Virus record (IMG/VR): IMGVR_UViG_3300024350_000006
DNA length: 64,000 bases
Direction: 5' to 3' (one strand)
Source: a virus
A program made the position numbers and the translations under genes. The first letter of the stretch is position 1. Each line of letters begins with the position of its first letter. The notes beneath the pieces were generated by a model that ran no database searches, was not told where the DNA came from, and saw only the letters and a list, made by a program, of their open reading frames with translations. This document shows, one piece after another, positions 33-11,037 of this stretch.

Positions 33-1010
33 ATGTTAAAAAATCAAATATTAAAATATAGTAGGCAAACTACTATGGCTCCACTGGGAGCTTGGTTTGA
101 TCAAACTCTTGACAAACTTATCTATAAAAATACCTACGTCTACGAAGATACTTTAAAAGTGTTTCAGGAACGCCTTGTACAAGGGCTTCGTGATTACCGT
201 GACAAATATAAAATAGAAAATGTTGCATTGGGAATGAGTGGTGGTGTAGATAGTGCTCTTACTGCTGCATTATTTAAACAAGCAGGATGGAATGTATTGG
301 GCGTAACAATGCCTATACATCAAAATCCTGAAGAAACTGCCCGCGGTATTGAAACAATACAGGCATTAGGTATAGAACATAAACATATAGATCTAACTGA
401 AGATTTTGATAGGTTATATAATAGTTTCCTAGCCCGAGACTTTAGTCTAGGCAATAGTCCACTGCGCAGTGGTAATCTAAGAGTTCGTCTGCGTATGATG
501 ACAGTTTATAATGAAGCTTCACGCATTGGGGGACTAGTAGGCAGTACTGACAACTTTAGCGAACTAGCAGCAGGTTTTTGGACACTACACGGTGACGTTG
601 GTGATCTAGCACCCATACAAAGTTTAAACAAAAGTTGGGAAGTTCCTAAACTTGCTGAAATGGCCGGTGTGCCTGATTCCACAGTGTTTGCAAGACCCAC
701 CGACGGACTAGGCATTAGCAATGGTGATGAAGAACAGTTTGGCTTTAGCTATCTTGAATTTGATATTGTTTTATTGTCTCTAGTCACGGCAGTTGCAAGG
801 CATAATCTAAAAACTGCTGATCAGATTTTACTAATGTTAGAGGTAGATCCCTCTGATCAAGATACAGTAACTCGTGTTAAAAAAATTCTGGATAGAATTA
901 AATCAAGTACTTTTAAACGAGCTAACCCCTATAATCTTGCTCATCCTATTGATAGTTATAGGTATCAAGGACTAGCCAATCTTGACCAAGCTCTTAGATC
1001 TAATCTATGA
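33..1010 (+). CDS. nadE: NH3-dependent NAD+ synthetase-like ATP pyrophosphatase
   Basis: PP-loop LGMSGGVDS, GNLRVRLRM, GFWTLHGD, DLAPI, PTDGL..DEEQFG motifs; no glutaminase domain. Confidence 0.85.
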   Translation: MLKNQILKYSRQTTMAPLGAWFDQTLDKLIYKNTYVYEDTLKVFQERLVQGLRDYRDKYKIENVALGMSGGVDSALTAALFKQAGWNVLGVTMPIHQNPEETARGIETIQALGIEHKHIDLTEDFDRLYNSFLARDFSLGNSPLRSGNLRVRLRMMTVYNEASRIGGLVGSTDNFSELAAGFWTLHGDVGDLAPIQSLNKSWEVPKLAEMAGVPDSTVFARPTDGLGISNGDEEQFGFSYLEFDIVLLSLVTAVARHNLKTADQILLMLEVDPSDQDTVTRVKKILDRIKSSTFKRANPYNLAHPIDSYRYQGLANLDQALRSNL

Positions 1011-1819
1011 AAAAAATAGCCATACTTGGTGCCAATGGCACTCTGGGAAATTTACTCGGCGTTCTACTTAAAGATGTTGGCACTATATTACCAGTAACTA
1101 GAAAAGATCTCGACTTATTAAACTACACTGCTGTTTATGACTGGCTACAACGAGAACACCCAGATGTAATTATTAACTGTGCTTTCAGTGGCGGTAGTGT
1201 TAATACCACCGATGTTAATTTAAGTGATTTGCAGAGAAATATGCAGATGTTCCTTAATTTTTATCATCAGCCATCTAAATTTAGATATATTAACTTTGGT
1301 AGTGGGGCTGAATTCGATAGAGCTAGGGATATCAATAATGTCCAAGAACTGGAAATTACAGAACGTAATCCCATAGACACCTATGGGCTCGCTAAAAACT
1401 ATATTGCCCGCACTATTTGGAAAAGAGACAATTTTTATACATTAAGACTATTTGGTTGTTTTGGTTACAATGAGCCTAGTTCCAGATTATTTAAGAGACT
1501 TCTAAACACAGGCAAACTTAGCGTAATTGATCGTAAATTTGATTTTTTTAGTCATAGAGATATGGCCACTGTCGTTAAACACTACATAAATGCAGATCAA
1601 AAAGACTTAATCAAAGACATTAATTTAGTCTATAAAGAAAAATACAGTCTATACTATCAGGCATTATTGTTTGCTGACACACATTGCCCAACAGGGGAAG
1701 TTTTACTACAGGGATCTAGTGATCTAAATTATACTGGTAACAGTGACTTATTATATAGTCTTAATCTAGATTTACACGGTTTGAAACAGGGAATAGAGGA
1801 TTATAAACCCAATGAATAA
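1007..1819 (+). CDS. Extended SDR NAD(P)-dependent sugar epimerase/reductase
   Basis: GANGTLG Rossmann motif, YGLAK (YxxxK); ATGA overlap with nadE. Confidence 0.85.
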   Translation: MKKIAILGANGTLGNLLGVLLKDVGTILPVTRKDLDLLNYTAVYDWLQREHPDVIINCAFSGGSVNTTDVNLSDLQRNMQMFLNFYHQPSKFRYINFGSGAEFDRARDINNVQELEITERNPIDTYGLAKNYIARTIWKRDNFYTLRLFGCFGYNEPSSRLFKRLLNTGKLSVIDRKFDFFSHRDMATVVKHYINADQKDLIKDINLVYKEKYSLYYQALLFADTHCPTGEVLLQGSSDLNYTGNSDLLYSLNLDLHGLKQGIEDYKPNE

Positions 1820-2756
1820 TAAAAAAATAGTATACATAACTGGATGTCTAGGCTTTATAGGAAGCCACCTAACCAGGCAATGTCTTAACCTAGGGTGGTA
1901 CGTTTGTGGTGTAGATAAACTTACCTATGCAGCCAATCAACAATTTCTACCCGAATTTAAAAATTATCCTAATTTCAAATTTATAGAAAGCGACATTAAT
2001 GATCTTGATATGCTCTATGAATGTGATTATGTAATCAACACTGCGGCAGAAAGTCACGTGGATAACAGTATTGAAGATAGTGACAGTTTTGTACATTCCA
2101 ACATTAATGGTGTTCATAATCTACTAAAACTTATAGCCAAAAAGAAACAACGTCGTCCTATATTTTTACACTACAGCACAGACGAAGTTTATGGAGATAT
2201 TGTAGAAGGCAGTCATAGTGAAAAAGATTTACTCAAACCTAGTAATCCCTATAGCGCAACCAAGGCTGCTGCTGATCAACTAGTGCTAGCCTGGAGTAGA
2301 ACACACGGTATTAACTACATCATTGTTAGGCCTACCAATAATTATGGTATTGGACAATACGTGGAAAAACTTATACCCAAGAGTGTTAAATTTCTGGAAA
2401 TAGGTAGAAAGATAGACCTACATAATAACGGGACACCTATTAGGACCTGGTTACACGCTGCCGATACAGCTAGGGCCACCATACACATTATTAATTCTGG
2501 TGTAGTAAACGAAATCTATAACATAAGCGGCAATCTAGAATTACCAAACATAGAAGTGGTTAAAAAGATTCTTGGTCTTTTTGGTATAGAAGAAAACATA
2601 CAGGATTATATTGAGCCCAGTATGAGGCAGGGGCAGGATGTAAGGTACAGCATTGATGATAGTAAATTGAAGAATCTGGGCTGGCAACCTCAGGCAATAT
2701 TTGACACAGAGCTAGAAAAAATAGTAGAATACTATAGAAATAATTTTGTGTGGTAA
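1812..2756 (+). CDS. rmlB: NDP-glucose 4,6-dehydratase (RmlB/RfbB family)
   Basis: TGCLGFIG, DKLTYA, AAESHVD, STDEVYG, PYSATK, NNYG motifs. Confidence 0.92.
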   Translation: MNNKKIVYITGCLGFIGSHLTRQCLNLGWYVCGVDKLTYAANQQFLPEFKNYPNFKFIESDINDLDMLYECDYVINTAAESHVDNSIEDSDSFVHSNINGVHNLLKLIAKKKQRRPIFLHYSTDEVYGDIVEGSHSEKDLLKPSNPYSATKAAADQLVLAWSRTHGINYIIVRPTNNYGIGQYVEKLIPKSVKFLEIGRKIDLHNNGTPIRTWLHAADTARATIHIINSGVVNEIYNISGNLELPNIEVVKKILGLFGIEENIQDYIEPSMRQGQDVRYSIDDSKLKNLGWQPQAIFDTELEKIVEYYRNNFVW

Positions 2757-3502
2757 CAATGACAGTAAAAAACTATATAGTAAATTCAGTAAGGCCCATA
2801 CGTAACGGCTGGATGCTGGAAAAAAATCGTGATCTCTACCTAGCCTACCAAAAAATGTCACAATACAGTCGAGCTAGCTATGAGCATTATGTGGAAGAGC
2901 CTTTTGAATACATACAGCTTACAGAAGAAGTAGACGATAATGATACTTACACTCTAGCTGTCTGGGAGGATATTAAACGTATCTGGAATCAGGAGCCCTG
3001 TAATATATTCTTTGCAGGTGCTGATACAATTATGATAAGACCCACCTCACTGTTTGGGGATAGATTTAAAGAGTATAGGATGTTTAACTATACAGATCCT
3101 AAAAGCGAAGGTGAATTCCAGCATTATTTTAATGATGATATACAGTATTATCCTCATACAATGAGTCGGACAGTCTGGGACCTAGGCGAACAACTATGGT
3201 CACAGAGAGTGGGTCATCCTTATCAACACTGGGGATTTGATCAGGTTAGGCATAATTATATGTTCTGGAGTCAGGATATACCAATGGAGGATAGATTCCA
3301 TCCTGAGTTGGCTTACCAAGCTATGAACCTAAGGGCACTAACAGAACAGGCCATTGCCTGGCATAATTCCTGGAACGGTATTGATATTAATGCAGCACAC
3401 ATACTACACTTCCACGCTAGTCGTGGCAGTCAACAAGTAATAGATCTTATGAAATATTTTTGCGACTATTTAGAAATTCCCTATGACAACTCCAACACTT
3501 GA
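2750..3502 (+). CDS. Putative glycosyltransferase (GT-A-like)
   Basis: FAGADT in place of DxD, later DQ and ILHFH motifs typical of GT8/GT77-like enzymes; lies in the sugar operon. Confidence 0.5.
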   Translation: MVTMTVKNYIVNSVRPIRNGWMLEKNRDLYLAYQKMSQYSRASYEHYVEEPFEYIQLTEEVDDNDTYTLAVWEDIKRIWNQEPCNIFFAGADTIMIRPTSLFGDRFKEYRMFNYTDPKSEGEFQHYFNDDIQYYPHTMSRTVWDLGEQLWSQRVGHPYQHWGFDQVRHNYMFWSQDIPMEDRFHPELAYQAMNLRALTEQAIAWHNSWNGIDINAAHILHFHASRGSQQVIDLMKYFCDYLEIPYDNSNT

Positions 3503-4817
3503 TAAAATATTAGAATTAGTAGAACAACATTATAAAGAACGTCAGGAATCCCGTACCTGGACTGCGGGTCGAGATTTTGTAAACTATGCTGGCGCCTACT
3601 ACGATCAGGAGGAATATCTAGCAGGTGTCAAAAGCCTACTTAGTGGCTGGTTGGCAATGGGTAATGAAAGTTTAAAATTTGAACGACAGTTCCCCAAACA
3701 GTTTGGAAAAAAACTTGGTATAGTTACTAATTCAGGTAGCAGCAGTAACCTATTAATGATGGCAAGTCTTACCAGCAAACGTGGATACAATTTACCTAAA
3801 GGCACCAAGGTTCTTATGCCTATTGCAGGTTTTCCTACTACACTAAACCCTACATTGCAAATGGGTTTTACGCCAGTGTTTGTGGACATAGAGCTTGATA
3901 CTCTCAACCTAGATCTTGATCAGGTGGAGGCTGCACTTAAACAAAATCCTGATATTAGAGTCATTACCTTTGCGCACGTACTGGGAAATCCTCCCAATAT
4001 GGATAGAGTAATGGAAATAGTTAAAAAATATGATCTTATTCTATTAGAAGATTGCTGCGATGCTCTAGGAAGTACCTATAGAGAGAAACCACTGGGTAGT
4101 TATGGTCTTATGGCTAGTTGTAGTTTTTATCCTGCTCACCATATGACTATGGGCGAAGGTGGTTATGTAGCCACTGATGATCCCGAACAAGATATTATTT
4201 TAAGAAGTTTTAGAGAATGGGGTCGCGGCTGTTATTGTGTGGGACCTGAAGCTAATAAACTAAAATGTGGCACTTGTGGAACTAGATTTAAAAATTGGAT
4301 ACCCACTATGCCGGATGAAATTTTTGATCACAAATATGTATATGATGAGATTGGATACAATCTTAAGCCAATCGAACTACAGTGTGCAATGGGCATCAAA
4401 CAACTGGATAAGTTGCCGGAAATACACGCACTACGTAGACGAAACTACCAACTATTATTTTCCATATACGAGAAATATGAAGAATATTTTCATCTTCCTA
4501 GAGCTCAGGAACACAGCGACCCCAGCTGGTTTGCTTTTCCACTAACAGTAAGATCAAACGCTCCGTTTACTCGTGCGGATATAGTTGACTACCTGGAAGA
4601 AAAATTGATTCAGACTAGACCCTACTTCGCTGGTAACATTATGTTGCAACCAGCTTACAGTCATTTAATGGATCAAAATTTAGCAAAAAATAATTTCCCC
4701 AATGCAACACTAGCAATGACCAACACCTACTTCCACGGCACTAGCCCGGTAATCACTCCCGAGCAGATTGCCTATATTGGAGAAGTAGTAGACGGATTTA
4801 TGAGTCTGTTCAATTAA
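3483..4817 (+). CDS. rfbH: NDP-4-keto-6-deoxyglucose 3-dehydrase (E1/DdhC/RfbH; PMP and [2Fe-2S] dependent)
   Basis: NSGSSSN, EDCCDALG, SFYPAHHMTMGEGG (His replacing the PLP lysine), Cys cluster GCYC...CGTC, DHKYVY. Confidence 0.9.
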   Translation: MTTPTLDKILELVEQHYKERQESRTWTAGRDFVNYAGAYYDQEEYLAGVKSLLSGWLAMGNESLKFERQFPKQFGKKLGIVTNSGSSSNLLMMASLTSKRGYNLPKGTKVLMPIAGFPTTLNPTLQMGFTPVFVDIELDTLNLDLDQVEAALKQNPDIRVITFAHVLGNPPNMDRVMEIVKKYDLILLEDCCDALGSTYREKPLGSYGLMASCSFYPAHHMTMGEGGYVATDDPEQDIILRSFREWGRGCYCVGPEANKLKCGTCGTRFKNWIPTMPDEIFDHKYVYDEIGYNLKPIELQCAMGIKQLDKLPEIHALRRRNYQLLFSIYEKYEEYFHLPRAQEHSDPSWFAFPLTVRSNAPFTRADIVDYLEEKLIQTRPYFAGNIMLQPAYSHLMDQNLAKNNFPNATLAMTNTYFHGTSPVITPEQIAYIGEVVDGFMSLFN

Positions 4818-4832
4818 TTACAGAGGAACACT

Positions 4833-6593
4833 ATGAGAGGCGATCAATACGTAGCACAATTTTTAAAAGCAATTAATAGCAACAAGGTATTTTTAGTACA
4901 GGGCGGAGCTTGTGCCTTTATGCTAGATGCAGTGGGCGAAACACCTGGAATGAGTTATGTGGCCTTCCAGCACGAACAGGCAGCGGCTATGGCGGCTGAT
5001 GCACTCTGGCGAACCAGCGGCCAGCTGGGGGTGACATTCTGCACCAGCGGACCAGGCGCAAGTAATCTATTAACAGGCATCGCCTGCGGCTACTACGATA
5101 GCATACCCAGCCTACATATCTGTGGTCAGGTGAACGGTAAAGAGGTAGCACAGTATAAAGGTGCCAAAGTAAGACAGGCTGGATTCCAGCAGATGGACAT
5201 TGTAAGTATGGCCAAGCCTGTATGTAACTATGCCGTGGCAGTGACCAAGGCCAGTGAGCTACCACTTGCTCTTAAAACTGCTGTGGAACAGGCGTTTACT
5301 GGCAGAATGGGACCAGTGTTAGTGGACATTCCTATGGACATACAGACGGAAGACATAGGCACAGATGAAATATTGTTACCAGAAATTAAAGTTCCCAGTA
5401 TTGCAGATGATCAAACACAAATTATTGCTAATAGCGTAAATGAATTTTTCCAGTCAGGTCAAAGGCCCTTGGTTGTATTAGGAGCTGGTGTTGAACTAGC
5501 AGGCAGACAACAAGAGATGGTAGACTGGTTACAGAAAACTCGAACACCGTTCGTGGCCAGCTGGAGTGCTCTAAATATTTTTGATCATAGTATGCCTAAC
5601 TATCTAGGTCATTTTGGTGTCTACGGTAACCGTGGTGGTAACTATGTAATACAAAACGCAGATCGCATTCTGGTATTAGGCAGCAGACTGGATAATCGTC
5701 AGACTTCAGGCAACGTGGATAATTTTGCGCCCAGTGCTAAACTAATGGCCCTGGATATTGACGGCGAAGAATTAATAAAGTATCCTGATAGATTTACAGG
5801 TATACAAGTTAACCTTACACACCTTGATAAAATTTTACCTAATGTTGCTGCGCCAGAAGCTAGTTCAGACTGGCTGGAATATACTAATAGAATTAGAGAA
5901 AAATATCTAAACACCGATATTAGTCAGGAAAGTGAAAAATATAACAGTCTTAATCCCTACAGTGTAGTTAGAAAGATAACTAGTCTGCTTGATGATGATG
6001 CGCACATCTTTGCTGATGCTGGTGCCAACCACGTTTGGCTCTATCAGATGTGGAATCGTAAAGGTAGACAAAAATTATTTACTAGTAGCGGTCACTATGC
6101 AATGGGTTACAGTCTACCTGCTGCTATTGGTAGCCTAATAGGAAATCCTGAAGTTCAGGCAGTCAGTTTTAATGGTGATGGTGGTGTACAGATGAACATA
6201 CAGGAACTACAGACTGCAAGAGAATATGGTCTAGACATCAAAGTGGTGGTATTTAATAACCAGGGTCTGGGTATGATACGTCAATTCCAGAATAGTTATA
6301 TGGGTGGACGCCATCACGCCACCACACAGGGTCAGGGACCAGGTGTTCCTGATTTTGAAAAACTAGCTGCCGCCTACGGTATGAAATATACCAAGGTTGT
6401 GGACCTTAAGCAATTAGACAGTGACTTATTCCAGCAAGGTTCAAGATTAATAGAATGTGTGATTGACCAACGAGTGCTTATTGAACCCAAATTGGAAATG
6501 GGAAGACCAATTAATGATCAGTTCCCCTACGTCACTGACGAAGAATTTTTAGAAAACAACCAATTTGTGGAATACACCCACAGAAAAAAATAA
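4833..6593 (+). CDS. ThDP-dependent acetolactate-synthase-like enzyme (YerE-like by context)
   Basis: HEQAAAMAAD, TSGPGASN, GPVLVDIP, ThDP motif GDGG...NN, MIRQFQ. Confidence 0.88.
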   Translation: MRGDQYVAQFLKAINSNKVFLVQGGACAFMLDAVGETPGMSYVAFQHEQAAAMAADALWRTSGQLGVTFCTSGPGASNLLTGIACGYYDSIPSLHICGQVNGKEVAQYKGAKVRQAGFQQMDIVSMAKPVCNYAVAVTKASELPLALKTAVEQAFTGRMGPVLVDIPMDIQTEDIGTDEILLPEIKVPSIADDQTQIIANSVNEFFQSGQRPLVVLGAGVELAGRQQEMVDWLQKTRTPFVASWSALNIFDHSMPNYLGHFGVYGNRGGNYVIQNADRILVLGSRLDNRQTSGNVDNFAPSAKLMALDIDGEELIKYPDRFTGIQVNLTHLDKILPNVAAPEASSDWLEYTNRIREKYLNTDISQESEKYNSLNPYSVVRKITSLLDDDAHIFADAGANHVWLYQMWNRKGRQKLFTSSGHYAMGYSLPAAIGSLIGNPEVQAVSFNGDGGVQMNIQELQTAREYGLDIKVVVFNNQGLGMIRQFQNSYMGGRHHATTQGQGPGVPDFEKLAAAYGMKYTKVVDLKQLDSDLFQQGSRLIECVIDQRVLIEPKLEMGRPINDQFPYVTDEEFLENNQFVEYTHRKK

Positions 6594-6879: not shown

Positions 6880-6908
6880 TTGACTTTAACCCCGGGTTCC
6901 TGTATTAT
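6880..6908 (+). promoter_or_regulatory. Sigma70-type promoter TTGACT-N17-TATTAT
   Basis: Near-consensus boxes with a 17 nt spacer, upstream of AAGGAG SD and ATG 6945. Confidence 0.7.
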
Positions 6909-6944
6909 TACGAAATAAACTAATAACTACCAAGGAGCCTAACT

Positions 6945-7967
6945 ATGAAACCCATTGTGGAAATTATTGCTGGCAGCTATCGCGATCAAGACTGTACTGG
7001 TATGCAGTTTGAACTAAAACAGCCCTTTACCAACACAGGCAAAAACGCATTTATTGCTGTCAAAAATGATGGACAGATTCCCGGCGGTCCAAAAGTGATC
7101 CGCATTAATGTTAAAGGTCCTATGGACTATCAATTTACAAATGGTAATTTTGTTGTAGAAGACAACACCAAGCCCACACAGGCTGCACCAGCTGAGACAG
7201 ACCAAGAAGCAATAGCTCGTATTCGCGAACGTTTTGAAATCCTGCACGAAATGACCAAGGCTGCTACTAACGGCGACATTCGTGCTATGATTGTAAGTGG
7301 TCCTCCTGGTGTTGGTAAGAGCTTTGGTGTTGAGCAAGAAATTGAAAAAGCCCAACTTATAGATCAACTTGCTGGACGTCGCCTACGTGCAGAGGTAGTA
7401 AAAGGCAGTGCCAGCCCAATTGGTCTGTATCAAACTCTCTACAAGTATTCAGATTCGAACTGTGTTATCGTGTTTGATGATTGCGACAGTATCCTACTAG
7501 ACGACGTCGCACTTAACTTGCTTAAAGGTGCTCTGGATTCCGGTAAGAAGCGCAAGATCAGCTGGTTGAGCGAGAGCCGTGTACTCAAGGACGAGGGTAT
7601 CCCCTCAACCTTTGATTTTAAAGGCAGTGTTATCTTTATCACTAACCTTAAGTTTGACAAGATGAAATCGCAAAAACTGCGTGATCACTTGGATGCACTG
7701 CAATCACGTTGCCACTATCTGGATCTTACCCTGGATACTCAGCGTGACAAAATCCTGCGTATTAAGCAGATTGCAGGTGACGGTGTATTGTTTGATGGTT
7801 ATGATTTCAGCAAAGATGAACAGGAAGAAATCATTGAGTATATGGATGAAACCAAGGACAATCTGCGCGAACTAAGTCTGCGTATGGCTCTCAAGATTGC
7901 TGACCTCCGCAAGAGCTTCCCTAATAAATGGAAGGCAATGGCTAATACTACCTGTGTCAAGGTATAA
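6945..7967 (+). CDS. AAA+ ATPase with extra N-terminal domain
   Basis: Walker A GPPGVGKS, Walker B VIVFDDCD, sensor ITN, arginine finger ALQSRC. Confidence 0.85.
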   Translation: MKPIVEIIAGSYRDQDCTGMQFELKQPFTNTGKNAFIAVKNDGQIPGGPKVIRINVKGPMDYQFTNGNFVVEDNTKPTQAAPAETDQEAIARIRERFEILHEMTKAATNGDIRAMIVSGPPGVGKSFGVEQEIEKAQLIDQLAGRRLRAEVVKGSASPIGLYQTLYKYSDSNCVIVFDDCDSILLDDVALNLLKGALDSGKKRKISWLSESRVLKDEGIPSTFDFKGSVIFITNLKFDKMKSQKLRDHLDALQSRCHYLDLTLDTQRDKILRIKQIAGDGVLFDGYDFSKDEQEEIIEYMDETKDNLRELSLRMALKIADLRKSFPNKWKAMANTTCVKV

Positions 7968-7968
7968 T

Positions 7969-8166
7969 ATGGCAACAGATTCTCTTTTGTTAACAAAAGA
8001 ACAAATAAAAAAGATGGCCCAGCTTGTGGAACGATTTCCTGAGATAGATGATTATACTCTGGAAATAGATAACAGCTCGGGTATTGGGCCAAGCTACACA
8101 ATTAAGTTTTCTTTATATCTGGACGATGATTTTAGGGTAGATATTACAGATGTCACAACCTGGTAA
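7969..8166 (+). CDS. Hypothetical protein (start at MATDS)
   Basis: ATG 1 nt after the ATPase stop; SSGIG motif. Confidence 0.6.
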   Translation: MATDSLLLTKEQIKKMAQLVERFPEIDDYTLEIDNSSGIGPSYTIKFSLYLDDDFRVDITDVTTW

Positions 8167-8341
8167 AATATCGAGAGACAGATTGGATCAAATCCTAATG
8201 TCTATGCTAGGCAGCAAGGATCTAGTAGAACGTTGGTGGACCACGCCCAATAGGGCTTTTGAAATGCAACCGCCTGAACTAGCTGATCCTGCATTAGTAA
8301 AAGATTATATCATCTGGCACGCCTACTGTGCGGGTGGTTAG
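8150..8341 (+). CDS. Xre/MbcA/ParS antitoxin C-terminal-like small protein
   Basis: ERWWTTPNRAFEMQPP resembles the W..PN.A....P signature of the DUF2384-type toxin-binding domain. Confidence 0.55.
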   Translation: MSQPGKISRDRLDQILMSMLGSKDLVERWWTTPNRAFEMQPPELADPALVKDYIIWHAYCAGG

Positions 8342-8345
8342 GTTT

Positions 8346-8397
8346 CAGACCTAAAGGTCTGGGTCTGCTGATTTTCAGTTAGCTCCTGCGGCGGACC
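8346..8397 (+). ncRNA. Structured 3' element: two hairpins, the second with an 18 nt loop containing anti-SD AGUUAGCUCCU
   Basis: CAGACC/GGTCTG stem (8346-8361); 9 bp stem 8362-8370/8389-8397; loop complementary to 6933-6950. Confidence 0.5.
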
Positions 8398-8401
8398 TTA
8401 C

Positions 8402-8433
8402 AAACCCTGTCTAAATTAGACAGGGTTTTTTTT
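8402..8433 (+). terminator. Intrinsic terminator
   Basis: AAACCCTGTCTA-AAT-TAGACAGGGTTT followed by a T-run. Confidence 0.9.
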
Positions 8434-8460
8434 GACTTGTAAATCTAGATGTTGTATAAT
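8432..8460 (+). promoter_or_regulatory. Sigma70-type promoter TTGACT-N17-TATAAT (leaderless transcript predicted)
   Basis: Consensus -10 ends 5 nt before ATG 8466; no SD. Confidence 0.8.
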
Positions 8461-8465
8461 GAATT

Positions 8466-9548
8466 ATGAAAAATACATTTCCCTACGTTGAGCATTATAT
8501 CGAATTTTTGGGCGGGTATCGTGATGCCAGCGGCGCACTCTACGGTCTGTTCAATCAACAGCAACCTCCCATAAATCTGGCCCGGTACGACGTTAATATT
8601 GTTGAGAGCCTAGCTTGTCAGACTTCGGAAACAAAACTAGGTTACACTGACCGTCAGGCTGATCTAGCTAGGAAACTGGTCAGCAAGTACAAAAAACAAT
8701 TAAGTAACCTACCTACTCCTATAATTGCCCCAGGACTGGAAGAAACTCTAGATTACAGAATGCCCATACGTCAGATTGATCGTAGACGTAGAGTTTTCAT
8801 AGAACAAGATAAATTTATTTTAAAGTTTCCCTTTGACAGCGAACTAATCAACGCTCTTAAGAAACAACTCAAAGAAGGTCAAGGCACAGGTAAATGGAAC
8901 GACGAGGAAAAGACCTGGGCCCTTGGTATGACTGAAAGTACTCTTAACTGGATCTTGGCTGTCAAAGACATATATAACTTTGAGACTAGTGATGACATAG
9001 ATAAACTAGCACAGGCTATGCTAGAACGCGAACGCACACCCTACAAACTAGAACTTAGACTAGTAAATGATAAACTAGTGATTACTAATGCTGCCACTAG
9101 TCTAATAGAATATATAAACGAAAACCTAGGAGGGCTAGACTTGAATAATCTAGTTAGGTTGGTGGATTATAGCAGTGTGCTAGGCTACTCTGTGGATACT
9201 AGCCTAGTAGAAAGATTAAATATTGACAAGGAGTTTATACCCTGGTTAGTCAATAAAACAATCAAGCTTGATAAAGACCTAGAAGAAGCACAGGCACTTG
9301 ACAAAGTTATAGAATATGCTAGACTGACTAATAGATTGCCAGTGTATCTTTACCAAGGACAGACCAAGATTAAAAAGAACACAGATGGTAAAGACTTGGT
9401 CTACCTGGACAGAGATAGCGAAGCCACTATAGAGCCTAGATTGCTAGTTACTACCACTACCTTTATGATAGGCCACAAACGTGCTCGTTGGTTACAGAGC
9501 GCAGAAAAGATTGCCATAATAAACAATGCAAGCCACACTACAGATTAA
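8466..9548 (+). CDS. Hypothetical protein
   Basis: 360 aa ORF; KFPFD...GKWNDEEKTW segment resembles HARP-like motifs seen next to helicases. Confidence 0.75.
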   Translation: MKNTFPYVEHYIEFLGGYRDASGALYGLFNQQQPPINLARYDVNIVESLACQTSETKLGYTDRQADLARKLVSKYKKQLSNLPTPIIAPGLEETLDYRMPIRQIDRRRRVFIEQDKFILKFPFDSELINALKKQLKEGQGTGKWNDEEKTWALGMTESTLNWILAVKDIYNFETSDDIDKLAQAMLERERTPYKLELRLVNDKLVITNAATSLIEYINENLGGLDLNNLVRLVDYSSVLGYSVDTSLVERLNIDKEFIPWLVNKTIKLDKDLEEAQALDKVIEYARLTNRLPVYLYQGQTKIKKNTDGKDLVYLDRDSEATIEPRLLVTTTTFMIGHKRARWLQSAEKIAIINNASHTTD

Positions 9549-11037
9549 CGACGAAGTAAATGTAAAAATACAGGGACTAGATCTTAAACATAGAAAATAT
9601 CTTTCGGACAAGTACAAGTTCGAAATTCCCGGTGCCAGGTATCTCCCTGTGGTACGTCTAGGACGCTGGGATGGCAAGGTAAGTTATTTTCAGTTAGGTG
9701 GCACTACCTACATTAACTTACTGCCCGAGATACTGCCCTATCTAGATGATCAGGGCTATGATATTGAAATCAATGACACTAGAGAATACAATACTAAGTT
9801 CAACTTTCCCAGATTTGATAGTGATACCTTTGCCAACAAAACCTGGCCTCAGGGTCATCCACAGGCCGGACAGCCCATAACCTTCCGCGACTATCAAGTA
9901 GAAATAATCAATAACTTTTTAGAAAATCCACAGAGTGTTCAGGAGATAGCTACAGGTGCTGGCAAGACCTTGATCACTGCTGCTCTCAGTAAGACGGTGG
10001 AATCGCAAGGGCGCAGCATTGTCATTGTGCCCAATAAAAGTCTAGTAGCACAGACCGAGGCAGATTACATTAATCTAGGTCTTGATGTAGGAGTCTATTA
10101 CGGAGAAAGAAAAGAACTAGCACACAGGCACGTTATCTGTACCTGGCAGAGTATCAATGTTCTAATTAAAAATAGTCAGGGTAGAAATGCTGAAGACGAA
10201 CCAGCGAGCCTTAGGTTACTTAAAGATCCCAAAGACTATCTAATAGATGATCTAGCACAAGATGTTGTTTTAGTTATGGTTGATGAAGTACATCAAGCTA
10301 AAGCAGAAGTCCTCAAACAACTTCTTTCTGGTGTTTTTAGTCGTGTGCCTCTACGCTGGGGACTGACTGGTACTATACCCAAAGAAGATTTCGCTCGTGT
10401 AAGTATTCTATGTACACTGGGGCCAGTGGTGGGTCGTCTTAGTGCAAGTGAGCTACAGGAAGCAGGGCATCTAGCTGACTGCCACGTGAATATATTACAA
10501 TTACAGGATTACGCAGAGTATTCGGATTATAAATCCGAACTAAATTATCTTACTACTGATACAGCTCGTATTAAATTTTTGTCTGAATTAATCAATAACA
10601 TAAAAGACACTGGCAATAGTCTTGTATTAGTGGACAGAATAGAATCCGGCCGGGGAATAGTGGAAGCACTAAATATGCTGACCCCTGATTCAGCAGTGTT
10701 TGTTTCAGGATCCACTAAATCTAAAACTCGACAAGCTGAATATGATGAAATTGCGACTGCTACTAACAAGATTATTGTGGCGACTTATGGTGTGGCCGCT
10801 GTGGGTATTAATATCCCTCGTATTTTTAATCTGGTTCTTCTGGAACCCGGAAAGAGCTTTGTACGTGTTATACAGAGTATTGGGCGAGGCATTAGACGAG
10901 CTGAGGACAAAGACTTCGTCCAAATCTGGGACTTGACCAGCAGTTGTAGATTTGCCAAACGCCATCTAACACAACGTAAAAAGTTTTACACTGAAGCTAA
11001 CTACCCCTATACCTTTGAAAGAGTGGAATGGAAATAG
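9526..11037 (+). CDS. uvsW: SF2 DNA helicase, UvsW-like
   Basis: RLGRWDGK, Q motif RDYQ, ATGAGKT, DEVH, GLTGT, QSIGRGIR. Confidence 0.88.
   Translation: MQATLQINDEVNVKIQGLDLKHRKYLSDKYKFEIPGARYLPVVRLGRWDGKVSYFQLGGTTYINLLPEILPYLDDQGYDIEINDTREYNTKFNFPRFDSDTFANKTWPQGHPQAGQPITFRDYQVEIINNFLENPQSVQEIATGAGKTLITAALSKTVESQGRSIVIVPNKSLVAQTEADYINLGLDVGVYYGERKELAHRHVICTWQSINVLIKNSQGRNAEDEPASLRLLKDPKDYLIDDLAQDVVLVMVDEVHQAKAEVLKQLLSGVFSRVPLRWGLTGTIPKEDFARVSILCTLGPVVGRLSASELQEAGHLADCHVNILQLQDYAEYSDYKSELNYLTTDTARIKFLSELINNIKDTGNSLVLVDRIESGRGIVEALNMLTPDSAVFVSGSTKSKTRQAEYDEIATATNKIIVATYGVAAVGINIPRIFNLVLLEPGKSFVRVIQSIGRGIRRAEDKDFVQIWDLTSSCRFAKRHLTQRKKFYTEANYPYTFERVEWK

Follow-up and report, generated by a model that had tools for sequence, protein, structure and literature searches.

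In an uncultured T4-like phage from fresh water (IMG/VR virus record IMGVR_UViG_3300024350_000006; the whole stretch analysed, 64,000 nt, is called the window below), one operon carries near its 3′ end a hairpin whose apical loop is antisense to the start of its own first gene, an AAA+ ATPase gene, over the Shine–Dalgarno (SD) sequence, the spacer and the start codon. Data from the window and from related phages indicate that this 3′ loop probably pairs with the initiation region of the first cistron and represses its translation. The putative loop–start pairing is supported by covariation between the loops and the start regions of relatives.

In the window, the element lies between the last gene of the operon (stop codon at 8339–8341) and the end of the transcription unit, and, like all features given below, it is on the + strand. 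It contains hairpin 1 (CAGACC/GGTCTG, 8346–8361), hairpin 2 (8362–8397) and an intrinsic terminator (8402–8433). The original prediction, made from the letters of this DNA alone, had placed a 9-bp stem with an 18-nt loop between the last gene and the terminator, and this structure was located at hairpin 2, where GGTCTGCTG (8362–8370) pairs with CGGCGGACC (8389–8397), including two G·U pairs, and closes the 18-nt apical loop ATTTTCAGTTAGCTCCTG (8371–8388) that is antisense to the initiation region. The terminator begins 5–10 nt past hairpin 2 and has a 12-bp stem (8402–8428) with a T8 run (8426–8433); it marks the end of the operon and would also form the 3′ end of any released small RNA (sRNA). 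The 105-nt 3′ region folds with −42.2 kcal/mol (z = −5.5 compared with shuffled sequence). The promoter and terminator scan predicted 8402–8428 as the sole strong terminator of the ATPase unit and one strong promoter in front of it, in agreement with the proposed single sigma70 promoter and single terminator, and no internal promoter was predicted upstream of the 3′ module in the scan of the window. The two other strong terminators of the window (22556 and 62866) have no seed hairpin in front. No Rfam family matched the window at its gathering threshold, and the best sub-threshold matches (24.8 and 21.6 bits), which owe their scores to the terminator, fell far short of the cut-offs; neither tRNA nor tmRNA genes were found.

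The target of the loop is the translation initiation region of the first cistron (6932–6951), which comprises the SD sequence AAGGAG (6932–6937), the spacer CCTAACT, the AUG (6945–6947) and the following 4 nt. Between the loop and AAGGAGCCUAACUAUGAAAC (6932–6951), RNAduplex gave 15 bp in three runs (6 + 5 + 4) with one 1-nt and one 2-nt bulge and −15.7 kcal/mol, which reproduces the roughly 15 bp with two small bulges across SD and AUG that had been claimed; the net energy is −9.6 kcal/mol once the opening costs of both sites are counted. The bulged base is C6939, which is C, T or G across relatives. The proposal depended on the ATPase ribosome binding site (RBS) pairing better than other RBSs, and the ATPase start is indeed the best partner of the loop among the 96 open reading frame (ORF) starts of the window (runner-up −14.5 kcal/mol) and the top partner within the locus in 20 of 23 non-redundant loci, usually with a margin of 5–9 kcal/mol. 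No other site in the window lies within 3 mismatches of the reverse complement of the loop. Further AGGAGC-type RBSs had also been named as possible targets; pairing with them can be computed, but it is ∼4 kcal/mol weaker (−11.5 to −11.9 kcal/mol).

A DNA search found no similar DNA among cultured phages, and a search of IMG/VR with the exact loop gave no match, and close relatives were reached solely via protein search, which returned ATPases 88–100% identical to that of the window on contigs sharing the same operon. Five distinct relatives with ATPase identities of 88–96% were used for the comparison within this close clade (single loci are denoted by an L number below). Across all five, the 22 nt GATTTTCAGTTAGCTCCTGCGG, loop included, are invariant, and the loop of hairpin 1, the terminator and the spacer of the next promoter diverge strongly; the stem of hairpin 1 is invariant. 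The stem of hairpin 2 exists in the variants GGTCTGCTG/CGGCGGACC, GGATTACCG/CGGTAATCC and GGTTTGCCG/CGGCAAACC and is 100% paired in 6 distinct close sequences, with compensatory changes at 3 of its 9 pairs and 2 pairs changed to G·U, and these G·U pairs are valid on the transcribed (+) strand only. The start region of the clade reads AGGAGC[C/T]TAAC[T/A]ATG, in which the variable C/T is the base predicted to be bulged, and the net pairing energy, corrected for accessibility, ranges from −8.7 to −13.1 kcal/mol.

Distant relatives of the ATPase (about 66–74% identity) number in the hundreds in IMG/VR and metagenomes, and almost every one is preceded by a promoter of its own and a short leader. 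R1, a covariance model trained on the close clade alone, recovers the hairpin–terminator module in these distant loci, where the loops differ from that of the window and fit the SD and spacer of each phage's own gene. For example, the start region AGGAGCCAACC goes with the loop GGTTGGCTCCT, and GGGCTAGAAA, in which the SD itself is different, goes with TTTCTAGCCC; likewise AGGAGCCAAT is found with ATTGGCTCCT, AAGGAGCTAGT with ACTAGCTCCTT, AGGAGCTAGA with TCTAGCTCCT, GGAGCTAAAA with TTTTAGCTCC and CGGAGCAA with TTGCTCCG. In 63% of 113 non-identical loci, the 3 kb downstream contain a stretch of 9 nt or more that is exactly complementary to positions −14 to −1, compared with 0.9% for the reversed start region, 2.7% for a same-sense repeat and 3.8% for shuffled sequence; for a complement of at least 10 nt, the values were 46% of the 113 loci versus less than 1% in controls.

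Permutation was then applied to 24 non-redundant pairs detected by the model, each with a unique start-region class and a unique loop and chosen blind to complementarity. The mean duplex energy with the own start was −16.1 kcal/mol, versus −13.3 ± 0.5 kcal/mol for permuted pairs (z = −5.5, reached in 0 of 50,000 permutations). Many elements were overlooked or wrongly assigned by structure-based finders of hairpins and terminators, so module calls were taken from covariance-model matches; the permutation of loops only was preferred, as whole-locus matrices across classes were noisy (A-rich leaders match T-runs, and classes share the SD). The loop is invariant within the close clade and tracks its own SD and spacer in distant homologous operons, as the original prediction required. 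This comparison with close and distant relatives is decisive for the predicted loop/start pairing and shows that the complementarity is selected. Since the repeat is strictly inverted, sits in the loop of a strand-specific terminal hairpin, lies over translation signals and changes together with them, the selection appears to be for RNA–RNA pairing. The RNA hairpin, the conservation of its loop, its complementarity to the start region, the specificity of that complementarity and its co-evolution with the start region are all shown by these sequence comparisons.

The anatomy of the module is uniform among relatives. The antisense stretch occupies the apical portion of a hairpin in every one of 70 non-identical contexts; 64 of these keep the terminator, with a T-run 15–75 nt after the antisense stretch, and in 54 of the 70 this T-run enters a TTGAC/T −35 element. 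The module lies from 18 nt (in a monocistronic unit) to 2564 nt past the ATPase stop codon and is always at the end of the unit, whichever genes are inserted before it. In L018, for instance, five packed ORFs with no strong promoter or terminator among them separate the ATPase from the module, and the loop still fits the ATPase RBS over 10 nt. The stems are wholly different between clades yet 94.6% of cells are paired (44 distinct matches, in an alignment fitted to the model), and many distant relatives have an equivalent of the first hairpin (helix 1, 91.5% paired in an alignment likewise fitted to the model). In whole relatives of 300–355 kb, the loop-bearing module occurs once per genome and the other R1 matches are plain terminator–promoter junctions; when scanned with R1, four whole records of related phages yielded no extra loop-bearing modules. 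No such element was seen in Citrobacter phage Ci1 or Vibrio phage VP-1. One hairpin match upstream of the ATPase in L039 (2703–2734) was rejected as chance, being inside coding sequence and having no matching RBS. The homologue in Pseudomonas phage PA5oct (L187, 3490–3530) is followed 20 nt after its stop codon by the hairpin AAGTAGCA-AGG-TGCTACTT, whose 3′ arm contains an 8-nt complement to the gene's own spacer AGGAGTAGCAT and whose 5′ arm repeats that spacer; this hairpin could be a distant analogue or a product of chance. The PA5oct record includes ncRNA annotations derived from RNA-seq.

In three of the 23 loci (L020, L036 and L038), the loop has a better partner than the start of the ATPase. 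In these and in L095, an additional first gene with its own promoter precedes the ATPase, which there has no promoter. The additional gene encodes a conserved protein of 116–142 amino acids starting MAY(I/M)S (L020, 2534–2908; also L036, L038 and L095), which is encoded in L178 (1514–1897) as well. In these MAY-first loci, the loop TTTTTGTTAGCTCCTT pairs better with the start region of the first gene, AAGGAGC[G]TAACAAA, and the pairing keeps the geometry found in the window, including the one-base bulge, with G as the bulged base. This pattern suggests that the last hairpin of the unit may read its first RBS, a rule that rests on few independent events because the MAY-first loci are related to each other. 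As a side observation, the start region of the MAY gene resembles that of the window ATPase (AGGAGC-N-TAAC), and this likeness suggests that promoters and RBSs may be swapped through cassette recombination.

Several observations weigh against repression of the own first cistron by the loop. The window by itself is weak and not compelling evidence for a meaningful match, because 275 of its 63,981 18-mers (0.43%) equal or surpass the loop in pairing with the ATPase start region. In the close clade, the changes of the start region (C/T at the bulge, and T to A in L163) are uncompensated in the loop. Among the mismatches that flank the duplex, G·U does not outnumber A·C (28 versus 62), and this comparison, meant to part selection at the RNA level from selection at the DNA level, is uninformative and, if anything, unfavourable. 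L049, L103, L106 and L073 keep the loop GTTAGCTCC or GATAGCTCC, of which just 8–9 nt match their own ATPase start; the loop of L049 fits the start region of a distant MAY gene better (13 of 14), which leaves room for action in trans. L081 (1253–1339) and L100 (1249–1339) carry a CCAACC-type loop of the wrong class, as their start regions, GGGCTAGAAACC and AAGGAGTTGGCA, belong to another one; recombination, a chimeric assembly or decay of the element could account for these two loci. Downstream of T4 nrdC.10 lies a hairpin whose 15-nt loop contains no anti-SD sequence. Finally, repression as opposed to activation, and action in cis as opposed to trans, are inferences from sequence. In the 355-kb genome of L049, the MAY gene lies ∼270 kb away and heads another operon.

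A second stretch complementary to the ATPase start region was noticed in the window at 8331–8347 (GGUGGUUAGGUUUCA, −20.5 kcal/mol with four G·U pairs), where it overlaps the stop codon of the last ORF. The base at 6939 is C where this stop is TAG (the window, L165, L170 and L172) and T where it is TAA (L163 and L173, which represent two subclades), a co-occurrence that is suggestive only. In distant relatives, such a second, upstream anti-start-region segment was found in 7 of 67 loci versus 8 of 67 for the control, so it is not general.

In the mechanism we propose, the 3′ end of the operon mRNA would form a module of three hairpins, namely hairpin 1, hairpin 2 and the terminator, in which the apical loop of hairpin 2 would serve as an antisense ‘seed’ for the initiation signals of the first cistron, from the SD through the spacer to the start codon. 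When transcription has reached the end of the unit, this loop would pair with the initiation region and compete with 30S binding, which would lower translation of the first gene and might also lead to cleavage of the duplex. As both the SD and the AUG are inside the duplex, the most likely effect is that initiation is repressed. The contact could be made in cis, by 5′–3′ fold-back inside a single full-length mRNA as in icaR, or in trans, by a stable 3′ fragment that pairs with other copies of the mRNA and gives negative feedback as in OppZ and CarZ; the architecture of the module (seed hairpin, U-rich spacer, terminator) is small-RNA-like. A more specific and only tentative version is a cis-acting ‘transcript-completion sensor’, in which the first cistron would be loaded with ribosomes only during transcription of the operon, and the emerging last hairpin would close onto the 5′ initiation region of its own molecule. 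If this were true, the amount of protein per mRNA would be set by the length of the operon and not by the lifetime of the mRNA, the rule that the last hairpin reads the first RBS would persist through insertion of cargo or of a new first gene, and the device would be without precedent in viruses and the first to be backed by covariation across a family.

Folding of an mRNA 3′ end onto its translation signals is familiar from hok/Sok, where the 3′ fbi element pairs with the 5′ tac element and the full-length mRNA is translationally inert. The hok locus is a type I toxin–antitoxin system that encodes a small membrane toxin and also has a leader ORF and an antisense RNA. The fold-back of a 3′ end onto 5′ translational signals, for which the original prediction had invoked hok, stands, but the phage locus is not a type I toxin locus or a member of the hok/Sok family, because toxin, leader ORF and antisense RNA are all missing: its gene encodes a 340-amino-acid AAA+ ATPase, and no strong minus-strand promoter or antisense RNA was found at the ATPase start region in the window scan. 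In lambda, int is retroregulated by sib: read-through transcripts are cleaved by RNase III and decay from the 3′ end. Like the phage module, sib governs a phage gene from a downstream site via RNA structure at the 3′ end of the transcript, but it acts without pairing to the RBS.

Two bacterial systems are closer. In the icaR mRNA of Staphylococcus aureus, a UCCCCUG motif of the 3′ untranslated region (UTR) pairs with the mRNA's own SD, blocks formation of the initiation complex and makes a substrate for RNase III (Ruiz de los Mozos et al. 2013, PMC3868564). Both systems have a short C-rich 3′ motif complementary to the SD region of the same mRNA (15 bp in the window, and exact 9–11-nt complements in 63% of 113 relatives). 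For the phage unit, one strong promoter and one strong terminator are predicted in the window and in L018. Unlike icaR, in which one bacterial gene has a 7-nt motif in a long 3′ UTR, the phage module, known here from sequence, has its motif in a hairpin loop beside the operon terminator, spans the spacer and AUG and covaries in many lineages. OppZ and CarZ of Vibrio cholerae are described as Hfq-dependent, autoregulatory sRNAs that RNase E releases from 3′ UTRs (Hoyos et al. 2020, PMC7398697). As there, RNA from the 3′ end of an operon, ending at the shared terminator, would pair with a cistron of its own transcript and inhibit translation in negative feedback: the seed is complementary to the initiation region of a cistron of its own operon, and the predicted RNA ends at the Rho-independent terminator of that operon, also in 64 of the 70 contexts of relatives. 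OppZ targets an internal cistron and triggers Rho termination (PMC7398697), whereas the predicted target of the phage module is the first cistron.

In T4-type phages, PeSL (promoter-early stem-loop) cassettes join a stem-loop terminator to a strong early promoter of sigma70-like type (Arbiol et al. 2010, PMC2839356). The phage locus resembles them in its terminator–promoter fusion at the border of an early cassette with variable small ORFs, but PeSLs are described as recombination and terminator–promoter motifs, with no RBS-antisense loop described there (PMC2839356). The anti-start hairpin is an extra element 5′ of the terminator, so that the likeness to a PeSL border holds for the terminator–promoter part and not for hairpin 2; similar junctions occur elsewhere in related genomes. 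Our literature searches found no description of this element, no comparable phage device and no lytic-phage example. Thus, pairing of a 3′ end with an RBS is already known as a mode of regulation, and the phage version appears to be new and to have unusually strong comparative support.

Four other explanations of the data have to be weighed, and all of them are less likely than repression of the first cistron. In T4, RegB cuts GGAG in early mRNAs, and in a T4-like phage the 3′ loop could instead shield GGAG and the start region from an endonuclease or from 5′-end-dependent decay, so that a real pairing would be protective or activating and would stabilise the message. This explanation, which we consider unlikely, shares the same covariation evidence and has a precedent in the hbs mRNA of Bacillus subtilis, for which a stabilising contact between 5′ and 3′ UTR is documented (PMC5737220); the duplex, though, covers the SD and AUG, an arrangement that is documented to block initiation in icaR (PMC3868564) and in OppZ/CarZ (PMC7398697). 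Somewhat more improbable still is that the loop is the seed of a trans-acting sRNA directed mainly at AGGAGC-type RBSs of other mRNAs, from the phage or its host, with only a secondary match to the ATPase. The small-RNA-like architecture would fit, as would the loop of the L049 subgroup with its better match to the start of a distant gene, and the target search covered just 64 kb of the genome of the window phage; against it, loops of many classes track the spacer of their own first cistron, the ATPase start ranks first as a partner in 20 of 23 loci and among the 96 starts of the window, and the reverse complement of the loop has no other window site within 3 mismatches.

The inverted repeat could also act at the DNA level, flanking a mobile or recombining early cassette (PeSL-like shuffling) or providing two inverted binding sites for a DNA-binding protein. 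The fusion of a terminator to an early promoter, resembling T4-type PeSL cassette borders (PMC2839356), and the variable cargo between the ATPase and the element speak for such a role. It is nonetheless very unlikely, as the repeat always occupies a hairpin loop closed by a covarying stem with strand-specific G·U pairs, always covers SD and spacer, and is always inverted and never direct (63% versus 2.7%); moreover, recombination between inverted repeats would invert the segment and not excise it, and other terminator–promoter junctions in the same genomes have no repeat. That hairpin 2 is a generic C/U-rich hairpin close to a terminator, fitting the RBS by chance or composition, is the least probable of all: any CUCC loop pairs with GGAG and the statistics of the window alone are weak, but the loop is invariant, the match reaches into clade-specific spacers, and the permutation and control tests reject chance.

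Self-regulation from the 3′ end is known from a few dissected single cases (icaR, OppZ and CarZ) with little phylogenetic depth. The present design, in which promoter, short leader, RBS of the first cistron, variable cargo, anti-RBS hairpin and terminator follow each other, is found in hundreds of contigs from environmental T4-like phages, and many independent pairs of start region and loop show natural compensatory changes. It hence offers a ready covariation data set for a long-range 5′–3′ interaction of mRNA, a clear and cheap experimental test in a heterologous host, and a compact, portable autoregulatory part for synthetic operons, and it hints that the dosage of the NrdC.10-type ATPase is critical for these phages.

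The ATPase operon begins with a sigma70-type promoter (TTGACT-17-TATTAT, 6880–6908), which has 10 of 12 consensus matches and is the strongest found by the promoter scan upstream of the ATPase; the predicted 5′ UTR is ∼30 nt, and a TATAAT-like −10 is also found at the equivalent position in relatives. The ATPase (6945–7967, 340 amino acids) has the Pfam domains AAA and AAA_16 and matches phrog_1250 (1.9e-85), with a weak DnaC-like match as well. It is a homologue of T4 NrdC.10 (35% identity to nrdC.10, E = 3e-44) by these matches, with homologues in about 1,300 cultured phage records, and the family is conserved but uncharacterised; in our literature search, nrdC.10 turned up in one genomic survey only. 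Two small ORFs of no family follow, one of 65 amino acids (7969–8166), a variable cargo of the operon, and one of 63 amino acids (8150–8341), its final gene; both occur in close relatives only and are not kept in distant ones.

All long ORFs of the window are on the + strand, and its gene content is phage-like. The boundary to the next unit is formed by a second promoter (8432–8468; 11 of 12 matches), whose −35 TTGACT overlaps the T-run of the terminator and whose −10 TATAAT is at 8455–8460. The gene after the terminator (360 amino acids, no family) has its ATG at 8466, 5 nt past the −10 (TATAAT-GAATT-ATG), and the −10, the 5-nt spacing and the ATG are identical in all close relatives. Its mRNA is probably leaderless and without an SD, because the −10 sits only 5 nt before the ATG. 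Directly upstream of the ATPase operon, at 33–6593, is a block of sugar/lipopolysaccharide-type biosynthesis genes that is kept in close relatives and includes a DegT/DnrJ/EryC1 aminotransferase and a three-domain thiamine pyrophosphate enzyme of 586 amino acids, an auxiliary metabolic module in a T4-like phage. Two genes downstream, at 9526–11037, a UvsW-type helicase of 503 amino acids (ResIII/DEAD/Helicase_C and UvsW_N) is encoded, which fits a T4-like replication and recombination gene content.

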